From a virus: a DNA stretch of 64,000 nt. The stretch lies in IMG/VR virus record IMGVR_UViG_3300030104_005963, one strand, 5' to 3'. Positions 13,283-14,320 of this stretch are shown here, piece by piece. A program made the position numbers and the translations under genes. Within the stretch, counting starts at the first letter, position 1; every line of letters begins with the position of its first letter. The notes below the pieces were generated by a model. That model had not been told where the DNA came from and did no database searches. It saw only the letters and a list, made by a program, of their open reading frames with translations.

Positions 13283-13471
13283 ATGAGCAAAGGATTTGAT
13301 ATAGATTCTGTCGATATTGAAATGTCGAAAGAAGATATGAAACAATTAATTAAAAAATACAAAAAATTAAAAAAATATCAAAATTCTAATTTTCATGCCA
13401 TTCGTAAATTGAACGGTGAGAATACGATTATTGATGAACTAATTAAAGAATCGGAAGATTACAAAATGTAG
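13283..13471 (+). CDS. Hypothetical protein
   Basis: 62-aa ORF with phage-like composition; its stop codon lies inside the NtcA-type box. Confidence 0.6.
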   Translation: MSKGFDIDSVDIEMSKEDMKQLIKKYKKLKKYQNSNFHAIRKLNGENTIIDELIKESEDYKM

Positions 13472-13482
13472 CACATAATACA
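13467..13482. promoter_or_regulatory. NtcA-type binding site
   Basis: TGTAGCACATAATACA matches TGTA-N8-TACA and ends 7 nt upstream of a -35 box. Confidence 0.6.
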
Positions 13483-13489
13483 AAACTAC

Positions 13490-13518
13490 TTGACTATATA
13501 ATAGAGAGGGTTTATAAT
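13490..13518 (+). promoter_or_regulatory. Sigma70-type promoter
   Basis: TTGACT (13490)-17 nt-TATAAT (13513). The predicted +1 (about 13525) coincides with the first base of the aptamer-like RNA. Confidence 0.8.
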
Positions 13519-13524
13519 AGACCC

Positions 13525-13756
13525 ATCGTTCATCCCATTATGTGGGACGCAAGTAAGTCGTGGAACGGATCGTTCATCCCATGTTAATAGAAGTACTTCT
13601 ATCTACAGCACTTACATGTCAAGAATCCGATACTTTATTGTTGAGGATTGAAAAACATGAAAACTTACCAGAAATGGTAAAGAATGAACTGGTTGAAACT
13701 GTAAAGGACTCAACTAATTCTAAGTGTATATGGGACGCAAACGACTAAAGGAACGG
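13525..13756 (+). ncRNA. Glutamine-riboswitch-like (glnA/Downstream-peptide family) double aptamer
   Basis: Two units of CGUUCAUCCC...UGGGACGCAA...GGAACGG with P1 CGUUC/GAACG and P2 UCCCA/UGGGA. An AAGUAAG...AAAG E-loop-like segment and complementary AGUCG/CGACU are present. It lies directly upstream of a DUF4278-like gene. Confidence 0.7.
13581..13748 (+). CDS. 55-aa ORF nested inside the riboswitch-like structure
   Basis: ATG 13581 to TAA 13748: MLIEVLLSTALTCQESDTLLLRIEKHENLPEMVKNELVETVKDSTNSKCIWDAND. The track starts it at GTG 13560. Confidence 0.55.
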   Translation: MLIEVLLSTALTCQESDTLLLRIEKHENLPEMVKNELVETVKDSTNSKCIWDAND

Positions 13757-13789
13757 ACCTAAAAATCCAATTACTTTAGGAGTAACAAA

Positions 13790-13954
13790 ATGAACACACT
13801 AAACATCATCAAAAGACAAATCGATAAGCAGGCAGCCCTGCACGATGCACAAATCAGAGTCACCAAATATCGTGGTGTCTCCTGTGAAGTGCATCAGGCA
13901 AATGAGGAAACTCACGGCACTTTCTGCTACCGTGGTCGTACTTACACCAAATGA
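13790..13954 (+). CDS. DUF4278-like small protein (not in ORF track)
   Basis: AGGAG Shine-Dalgarno at 13778. Translation MNTLNIIKRQIDKQAALHDAQIRVTKYRGVSCEVHQANEETHGTFCYRGRTYTK has two YRG motifs, the DUF4278 hallmark. Confidence 0.75.
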   Translation: MNTLNIIKRQIDKQAALHDAQIRVTKYRGVSCEVHQANEETHGTFCYRGRTYTK

Positions 13955-13961
13955 TTGATAT

Positions 13962-13989
13962 GAGAGGGTTAAGAACCCTCTCTTTTTTT
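13962..13989 (+). terminator. Rho-independent terminator
   Basis: GAGAGGGTT-aag-AACCCTCTC followed by T7. Confidence 0.9.
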
Positions 13990-14125
13990 ATACTTATATG
14001 AAAAAGAAACAAATGTTAGTGAATTAACACAAACGAGTCTATATAATATAGAATTAAGGAATAATCTTATGAATTGAAATTCATGACTTTGTTATGATAA
14101 AAAAAATTTACTTACGGGAGATTAA

Positions 14126-14305
14126 ATGCACAATAGACTATCTCGTAATCAATTAGCAGAATGGAATCATTTTGAAAAGTTATCAAATAGGTATAATGAA
14201 GAATTAGATTTGATAAATGATTATTTTGACTGTTTAATTGAGTGTGATGACGACCAAGGAACTTGTAAAAGAATTTGTAAAAATTTGCTTAATGTGGGGG
14301 GTTGA
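14126..14305 (+). CDS. Small four-Cys protein (not in ORF track)
   Basis: GGGAG Shine-Dalgarno; MHNRLSRNQLAEWNHFEKLSNRYNEELDLINDYFDCLIECDDDQGTCKRICKNLLNVGG (59 aa). Confidence 0.7.
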   Translation: MHNRLSRNQLAEWNHFEKLSNRYNEELDLINDYFDCLIECDDDQGTCKRICKNLLNVGG

Positions 14306-14320
14306 CTACCCTCCTTTTTT
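14296..14320 (+). terminator. Rho-independent terminator
   Basis: GGGGGGT-tgact-ACCCTCC followed by a T run. Confidence 0.75.

Follow-up and report, generated by a model that had tools for sequence, protein, structure and literature searches.

A DUF4278-like cyanophage microprotein gene behind a predicted double glutamine aptamer, with a conserved anti-Shine-Dalgarno strand in the aptamer core

The window, by which we mean the whole 64,000-nt stretch of viral DNA from IMG/VR record IMGVR_UViG_3300030104_005963, contains a compact unit of ~465 nt in which a promoter is followed by a predicted double glutamine aptamer, a first small gene (ORF A) and, as the last element before the terminator, a second small gene (ORF B). 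All features of this unit lie on the + strand. The region shares ~70% DNA identity with T4-like cyanomyoviruses (Kyanoviridae) of marine Synechococcus, and its neighbours, ThyX and PhoH downstream and a DUF6433 protein upstream, form the set that is usual for these phages. The promoter, which directly precedes the aptamers, is of the sigma70 type (13490-13518; TTGACT-17-TATAAT, with 11 of 12 consensus matches), and its hexamers are kept upstream of the aptamers in relatives. Judging from the promoter position, transcription would start at around 13524-13526, and the sigma70-like character of the promoter suggests early expression of ORF B. The unit is closed by an intrinsic terminator at 13962-13989, consisting of a 9-bp stem with five GC pairs, a 3-nt loop and a tail of seven T residues, and this hairpin is also present in SynMITS9220M01. 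A search for a terminator between the aptamers and ORF B found none. Both flanks of the unit carry further elements. On the upstream side, a perfect NtcA-type GTA-N8-TAC sequence (13468-13481) overlaps the stop codon of an upstream 62-aa ORF, its centre lying ~50 nt before the predicted transcription start as compared with the canonical -41.5. On the downstream side, the next unit (14014-14320) encodes a 59-aa protein of phrog_665 (E 1e-26). A terminator belonging to that unit lies at 14296-14314, and a TTGACT-17-TAAAAT promoter starts within it.

ORF B (13790-13954) encodes a DUF4278-like microprotein of 54 aa, identified through homologues, coding pattern and profiles as a member of phrog_545 ('Gp198 family'; E 3e-28). 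It starts with an ATG at 13790, ends with a TGA at 13952-13954, and is preceded by the Shine-Dalgarno (SD) sequence AGGAG at 13778-13782, 7 nt 5′ of the ATG. A tblastn search with ORF B retrieved 379 phage records, 373 of them with at least 80% coverage and nearly all from Synechococcus phages, in which the homologues are labelled 'hypothetical protein' in GenBank (T4-GC 937, 'gp198'); a large protein collection held 360 clusters. Among 69 distinct coding sequences, the summed entropy at the three codon positions was 25/17/55, and lengths of 162 or 165 nt were found and no others. Since homologues occur in 373 records, phrog_545 is matched and the substitution pattern is that of a coding sequence, we conclude that ORF B is a genuine and widely conserved gene of T4-like cyanophages. 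The sequence-only reading from which this analysis started had proposed a 54-aa ORF with its own terminator and two YRG motifs; the homologues, entropy and lengths place ORF and terminator well beyond chance, and the motifs were indeed found at residues 27-29 and 47-49. Contigs from the metatranscriptome libraries of three studies (runs X16-X18) hold the ORF B region or close relatives of it. Such contigs show neither transcription, ends nor strand, and they are at best a hint of expression. When contigs of prokaryote genomes were scanned for the family pattern, the sole locus obtained (L084, NHGE01000043.1) was a contig of the 'Euryarchaeota archaeon TMED129' MAG, which is probably a mis-binned cyanophage contig. 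Host homologues of ORF B were obtained through the profile search only, and not through this pattern scan.

DUF4278 (PF14105) was the sole meaningful Pfam match of ORF B. The match that had been anticipated from the sequence was thus obtained, with residues 17-52 aligned to profile positions 19-57, but its score of 21.6 bits (E 2.9e-4) stays below the gathering cut-off of 25.3 bits. At E<=0.01, DUF4278 was the sole family matched by 14 of 21 relatives, the best value being E 1.4e-4. Additional evidence came from a search of 1.8 billion representative proteins with the family profile, which gave 109 matches. The weaker ones included proteins of 57-62 aa with sub-threshold DUF4278 scores, together with the protein P0211, which was found at E 2.6e-6 and itself scores 38.8 bits on DUF4278, above the cut-off. 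Alignment of the phage profile with P0211 by hhalign gave 97.4% and E 1e-11 over 54 columns, the full length. Furthermore, 45 sequences keep Y27-R28-G29 and Y47-R48-G49 with little or no variation, and ORF B has the N-terminal helix motif MNxLxLIR...AQ in common with its DUF4278-type relatives. Because the ORF B profile links to a protein that is itself above the Pfam cut-off, ORF B is by profile homology a distant, peripheral member of the DUF4278 superfamily, and not a clean Pfam member. This supports the DUF4278-like assignment made initially, on the strength of the sole, sub-threshold Pfam match and of transitive profile homology.

The AlphaFold model of ORF B (pLDDT 80) shows a helix (residues 3-23), after which the YRG motifs form two short hairpins. 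Searches of the PDB, with this model by Foldseek and with the ORF B sequence profile, returned no match. In the glutamine synthetase (GS) inactivating factor IF17, DUF4278 constitutes the N-terminal moiety, which stabilises IF17 and is dispensable for GS inactivation, while GS binding has been placed in the C-terminal part (PMC6212724, PMC6316151). ORF B ends five residues after the second YRG motif and is without an IF7-like C-terminal GS-binding region; its Pfam match is restricted to the DUF4278 part. ORF B may modulate host nitrogen assimilation, as initially proposed, although DUF4278 is not the moiety of IF17 that binds GS. The DUF4278-only proteins behind glutamine-II riboswitches of marine picocyanobacteria have no known function (PMC6212724, PMC6316151). 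What the sequence-only reading had taken as established about DUF4278, IF17 and glutamine riboswitches agrees with these two reports.

The leader between promoter and ORF B did not stand out in a routine annotation: an Rfam scan of the whole window at the gathering cut-off reported two tRNAs only, and the match to the glutamine riboswitch family RF01739 was visible only at E-value thresholds. This match corresponds to aptamer unit 1 (13525-13571), which scored 31.4 bits (E 8.8e-5), below the cut-off of 35 bits. It consists of P1 (13527-31/13563-67), a P2 that covaries across relatives (13533-37/13543-47) and the strand AGUCG at 13556-60, and it has no P3 of its own. Aptamer unit 2 is split. 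Its 5′ half (13571-13584) comprises the P1 strand CGUUC (13571-75) and the 5′ strand of P2, UCCCAUGU (13577-84), which includes the start codon of ORF A, and its register is identical to that of the compact second aptamers of relatives. The 3′ half (13728-13756) comprises the 3′ strand of P2, AUAUGGGA (13728-35), the core GACGCAAACGACUAAAGG and the P1 strand GAACG (13751-55). Unit 2 was undetected by RF01739 in the window because an ORF sits in its P2 loop. However, the pattern ACGCA..GGAACG occurs twice in the window, versus 0.08 occurrences expected, and both units show the P1 CGUUC/GAACG and a covarying P2 around a conserved core.

The long-range P2 of unit 2 covaries across the nested ORFs of different phages, for instance as CCCA/UGGG, CCUCAU/AUGAGG, CUUAU/AUAAG or UCAUG/CAUGA. 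Within 40 ORF-bearing aptamers, its third pair was CG in 32, UA in seven and UG in one, and the paired fraction of P2 was 0.875 versus 0.811 in shuffles, a value reached by none of 2000 shuffles. Covariation of P1 and P2 thus persists across nested ORFs of 150-220 nt. The strand AGUCG of unit 1 (13556-60) is complementary to CGACU of unit 2; both are nearly invariant and their variants wobble-compatible only, so that covariation is weak. The pairing is consistent with a P3 that is common to both aptamers. When folds were enforced, the interlocked aptamers gave -67.0 kcal/mol and the side-by-side aptamers -61.1 kcal/mol, the interlocked state being the nearer to the unconstrained minimum (MFE) of -70.0 kcal/mol. 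Relatives with a single canonical aptamer including P3 (L048, L066, L080) score 51-53 bits on RF01739 (cut-off 35) and carry it directly before their ORF B homologues, which lends support to the earlier proposal that the ORF sits directly behind glutamine aptamers. In the relatives L015 and L045 the second aptamer is compact, and L045, taken as one nested aptamer, scores 46.4 bits on RF01739; other relatives nest different ORFs in unit 1 or unit 2. The leader of the unit is best described as a predicted double glutamine aptamer, which would bind glutamine if this assignment is right.

The gene enclosed by unit 2, ORF A (13581-13748; 55 aa, phrog_504, 'gp197', E 1e-18), lies wholly within the P2 loop, and the unit 2 core supplies the codons for its C-terminal WDAND as well as its stop codon. 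It is present in 289 phage records, its length varies by multiples of three only and variation is highest at third codon positions; ORF A is a real gene. Besides this form, variants from seawater metatranscriptome libraries (runs X16 and X17; window 13568-13733) have a compact P2 hairpin of ~21 nt in place of ORF A, and the two forms coexist in the sampled seawater communities. Other nested genes were seen at related loci. At L071:903-1103, L010, L054, L007 and ~30 other loci, the P2 loop of unit 1 encloses a conserved gene for 66-68 aa (PYGWHMSCERF). The AUG of this gene is base-paired to a CAU beside the gene's own stop codon, and the stop type (UGA, UAA or UAG) shifts jointly with the P2 partner. 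At L028:933-1139, L033, L051 and L052, the gene found in the P2 loop of unit 2 belongs to a third nested family, of 56-57 aa (MFEFILFANL...). Here P2 is CUUAU/AUAAG, and the ORF ends before the aptamer core without reading into it.

Of 48 distinct relatives, 46 retain the AGGAG of ORF B, and in the window this sequence is contained in a strand, CUUUAGGAG (13774-13782), that pairs with an anti-SD strand, CGACUAAAG (13742-13750), located in the core of aptamer 2. This anti-SD overlaps both the ORF A stop codon and the CGACU strand. The mask CGACUAAAG/CUUUAGGAG, which was first read from the window's own fold, is part of the MFE structure of 13728-13800 (z = -2.55) and of that of the whole 286-nt leader (z = -4.15), and it includes tandem G-A mismatches (13743-44 opposite 13780-81). 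Across 48 distinct sequences the mask was paired in 99.1% of cells, as compared with 40-64% when the partner strand was slid. The pair 13747/13777 was GC in 26, GU in 13 and AU in nine of these sequences, mismatches being absent and A-C never seen (Fisher p = 2e-4), and 13750/13774 was GC in 30 and GU in 17. Four of the seven mask pairs are invariant, which leaves a single covarying pair and one GC/GU pair as the basis of the covariation.

Between linkers that are otherwise nearly identical, the difference is precisely the double change that preserves the mask, CUGAAG...CUUCAG versus CUAAAG...CUUUAG. On a tree built from ORF B only, at least six A/G switches and at least eight U/C switches have occurred at the covarying sites; a test of independent pairs on this tree had four pairs to draw on and little power. 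Supporting the pairing further, an exact-pattern scan of 2.9 million viral contigs (IMG/VR) found at least 120 contigs with the A-state anti-SD and TTTAGGA and at least 120 with the G-state and TTCAGGA, whereas the mismatched combination of A-state and TTCAGGA was found in none. On the anti-SD side, the base that varies falls at the second position of the ORF A stop codon (UAA or UGA), and the variable base on the SD side is non-coding; coding constraint is therefore no explanation for the correlation. The same anti-SD and SD are present in many phages with a compact second aptamer and without ORF A (L015, L045). Single-aptamer phages of the L048 type are without the CGACUAAAG/CUUUAGGAG mask, and another platform must therefore serve there. 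Together these findings show a conserved anti-SD that, by sequence comparison, overlaps aptamer nucleotides and is maintained in evolution.

Masking of the SD had also been proposed at the outset, in a different place: two hairpins local to the linker just past P1, CCUAAA (13758-13763) with UUUAGG (13775-80) and UUACU (13771-13775) with AGUAA (13781-85), were to be the output of the switch. Both pairings do occur in the window, and the first mask begins 2 nt after the aptamer as had been read, P1 of unit 2 ending with GAACG at 13755 and CCUAAA starting at 13758. Moreover, helix 1 (CCUAAA/UUUAGG) is the MFE structure of the isolated linker and also of the linker once the aptamers are enforced. 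Yet the local fold of 13757-13795 (-3.5 kcal/mol) is no better than that of shuffles (z = -0.67; 44 of 200 fold as well), and the duplexes, at -4.0 kcal/mol for helix 1 and -1.5 kcal/mol for helix 2 (UUACU/AGUAA), are weaker than the core mask at -6.6 kcal/mol. In 48 aligned distinct leaders, helix 1 was paired in 53% and helix 2 in 73% of cells, with neither covariation nor an excess over shuffles, so the pairing of CCUAAA is not conserved. Close relatives that combine CCUAAA with CUUCAGG have an uncompensated A-C mismatch in helix 1 while the same change is compensated to G-C in the core mask, and long-linker relatives are without CCUAAA altogether. It is thus quite improbable that the linker hairpins are the switch output, although helix 1 may serve as a weak residual mask in the window's lineage. 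The proposal of a translational switch by SD masking remains the best reading; the helices assigned to it give way to the conserved anti-SD in the aptamer core (13742-50). A further small hairpin in the linker, GGA 13755-57 with UCC 13766-68, was paired in 84% of cells, as compared with 83% after a one-column shift of the partner. The long-linker loci (L045:1117-1206, L015:1118-1206 and others) carry ~28 extra nt between aptamer and SD. Within this stretch are the sequence AAAGGAG, which resembles an SD, and a hairpin with a GNRA cap, the 3′ strand of which (GGGU or GCAG) has more than one partner available; the stretch looks like a more elaborate expression platform. At L085:1300-1683, a distant relative, P0219 (60 aa), adjoins a DUF3155 gene in a layout that is alike by eye, with a different inter-unit helix sequence (AGCC.AUG.GC with GCAU.CGCU) and a mask on both sides of the SD. 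Rfam gave no match on this contig.

Conceivably, the leader could act without any switch of this kind, either on mRNA stability or processing, for example through access of RNase E, or simply as a conserved leader that does not respond to a ligand. In Synechocystis, RNase E acts on both the gifB mRNA and its riboswitch (PMC8682795), and the aptamers in the window have no P3 of their own and score below the Rfam cut-off. However, conservation of the core nucleotides speaks against it, as does covariation of P1 and P2 even where ORFs of 150-220 nt intervene, and covariation of a mask that is specific to the SD would not be accounted for by a pure stability element. We consider this explanation very unlikely.

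The anti-SD nucleotides belong to the aptamer 2 core, including the CGACU strand that can pair with AGUCG of unit 1. Given this overlap, folding of the aptamer and masking of the SD would be mutually exclusive. Without a folded aptamer, CUUUAGGAG would be held by CGACUAAAG and the SD of ORF B would be masked; glutamine would stabilise the aptamer fold, withdraw the anti-SD and permit initiation at ORF B, as in an ON switch. ON logic of this type, with occlusion of the ribosome-binding site (RBS) by the 3′ region of the aptamer, has been proposed for gifB (PMC6212724) and for glutamine-II (PMC6698751), and ON behaviour has been shown for gifB (PMC6212724). ORF B would then probably be made only at high host glutamine. 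In modelling of the window, the accessibility of the SD went from 0.41 to 0.35 when the aptamers were enforced, helix 1 taking over. As accessibility is nearly unchanged in the model, thermodynamics alone predicts no clean ON state, and the ON state in the window would be a weak hairpin of -3.5 kcal/mol rather than a free SD.

ORF A could add a further layer to this regulation. The anti-SD contains its stop codon UAA (13746-48), which precedes the AUG of ORF B by 41 nt, and ribosomes that terminate there would open the mask transiently; with the start codon in P2 and the stop codon in the anti-SD, translation of ORF A would also prevent folding of aptamer 2. This connection between ORF B and the nested gene had not been drawn in the sequence-only reading. 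One could go further and suppose that ORF B is mainly coupled to the translation of ORF A, the riboswitch gating ORF A and the terminating ribosomes melting the mask. The position of the stop codon and the location of the start codon within the covarying P2 would suit such coupling, and ORF A accompanies ORF B in about three-quarters of the phage records (289 versus 373). Against this, anti-SD and SD are unchanged in many phages that lack ORF A and have a compact second aptamer, L015 and L045 among them, showing that the mask is independent of ORF A. In addition, glutamine would under the coupling model turn ORF A off and thereby ORF B off, the opposite of the ON behaviour of gifB. We therefore regard predominant coupling as unlikely.

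The best explanation of the locus, which we hold to be reasonably probable, is that ORF B is a DUF4278-like phage microprotein switched ON by glutamine via the anti-SD in the aptamer core. Binding of glutamine, the ON direction, the coupling of ORF A to ORF B and a role in host nitrogen metabolism are parts of this picture that we infer. A more far-reaching version, offered tentatively and on balance doubtful, assigns a triple role to 13742-50 as glutamine core and shared P3, as stop region of ORF A and as anti-SD of ORF B, and has ORF B mimic host DUF4278 microproteins and rewire nitrogen assimilation. If the triple role is true, the ligand, the translation of ORF A and the initiation of ORF B would compete on one RNA, and through this competition host glutamine would govern the ratio between the two phage microproteins.

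The pairing of glutamine riboswitches with DUF4278 microproteins is familiar from cyanobacteria, and the present findings show that a phage version of it exists in hundreds of cyanophages. With its defined and covarying SD mask, the phage version provides a compact system of ~300 nt for studying both riboswitch output and the function of DUF4278-only proteins. Should ORF B act on the nitrogen metabolism of the host, it would count as a ligand-gated auxiliary gene by which infection is tuned to host nitrogen status in the ocean. The overlap of anti-SD, nested-gene stop codon and aptamer core is an unusual arrangement for linking sensing to translation. The glnA RNAs of cyanophages, the DUF4278 family and the logic of SD occlusion by riboswitches were already known. 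New, as far as the literature could be searched, are the phage gene as a peripheral DUF4278 member, the phage expression platform and the nested genes.

Cyanophage glnA RNAs described in Rfam and genome papers (S-CREM1, PMC9964418; Weinberg 2010, PMC2864571) belong to the same RNA family and likewise occur in T4-like cyanophages, and a tandem arrangement was previously noted (PMC9964418, PMC2864571). Within the searchable literature, these reports give no DUF4278-like identity for the gene behind the RNA and no description of the expression platform or nested ORFs, and searches for S-PM2 gp198, for cyanophages with inactivating factors and for riboswitches with nested ORFs returned nothing relevant. 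Cyanophage CP12 (PMC7760959) is likewise the phage counterpart of a small regulatory protein of the host, used to redirect host metabolism. This resemblance is an analogy only, the target of CP12 having been demonstrated (PMC7760959) whereas none has been for ORF B.

In the leader of Synechocystis gifB, which encodes IF17, a type-1 glutamine riboswitch (RF01739) lies upstream of a DUF4278-bearing gene, as here (Klahn et al. 2018, PMC6212724). The mechanism proposed there is also alike, the RBS being paired with the 3′ portion of the aptamer until the ligand melts this helix and turns translation on (PMC6212724). However, the single aptamer of gifB includes a P3, whereas the window has two P3-less units that have one helix in common, unit 2 enclosing an ORF; and IF17 carries the C-terminal IF7-like GS-binding region that is absent from ORF B. 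The closest system is that of the picocyanobacterial DUF4278 microproteins behind glutamine-II (Downstream-peptide) riboswitches, such as the Yfr6 ORF, PMM1846, of Prochlorococcus MED4, whose expression goes up with nitrogen excess (PMC6212724, PMC6316151, PMC2864571). Like ORF B, these proteins are small (~33-60 aa or more), have YRG motifs and consist of the DUF4278 region only, and their genes are directly downstream of a glutamine aptamer. In contrast to them, ORF B is phage-encoded, has a conserved N-terminal helix (MNTLxxIKxQI..HDAQI) and falls below the Pfam cut-off. Its predicted sensor is a double interlocked aptamer of the glnA type instead of a glutamine-II element, and its anti-SD, unlike those of the picocyanobacterial systems, overlaps the stop codon of a nested gene.
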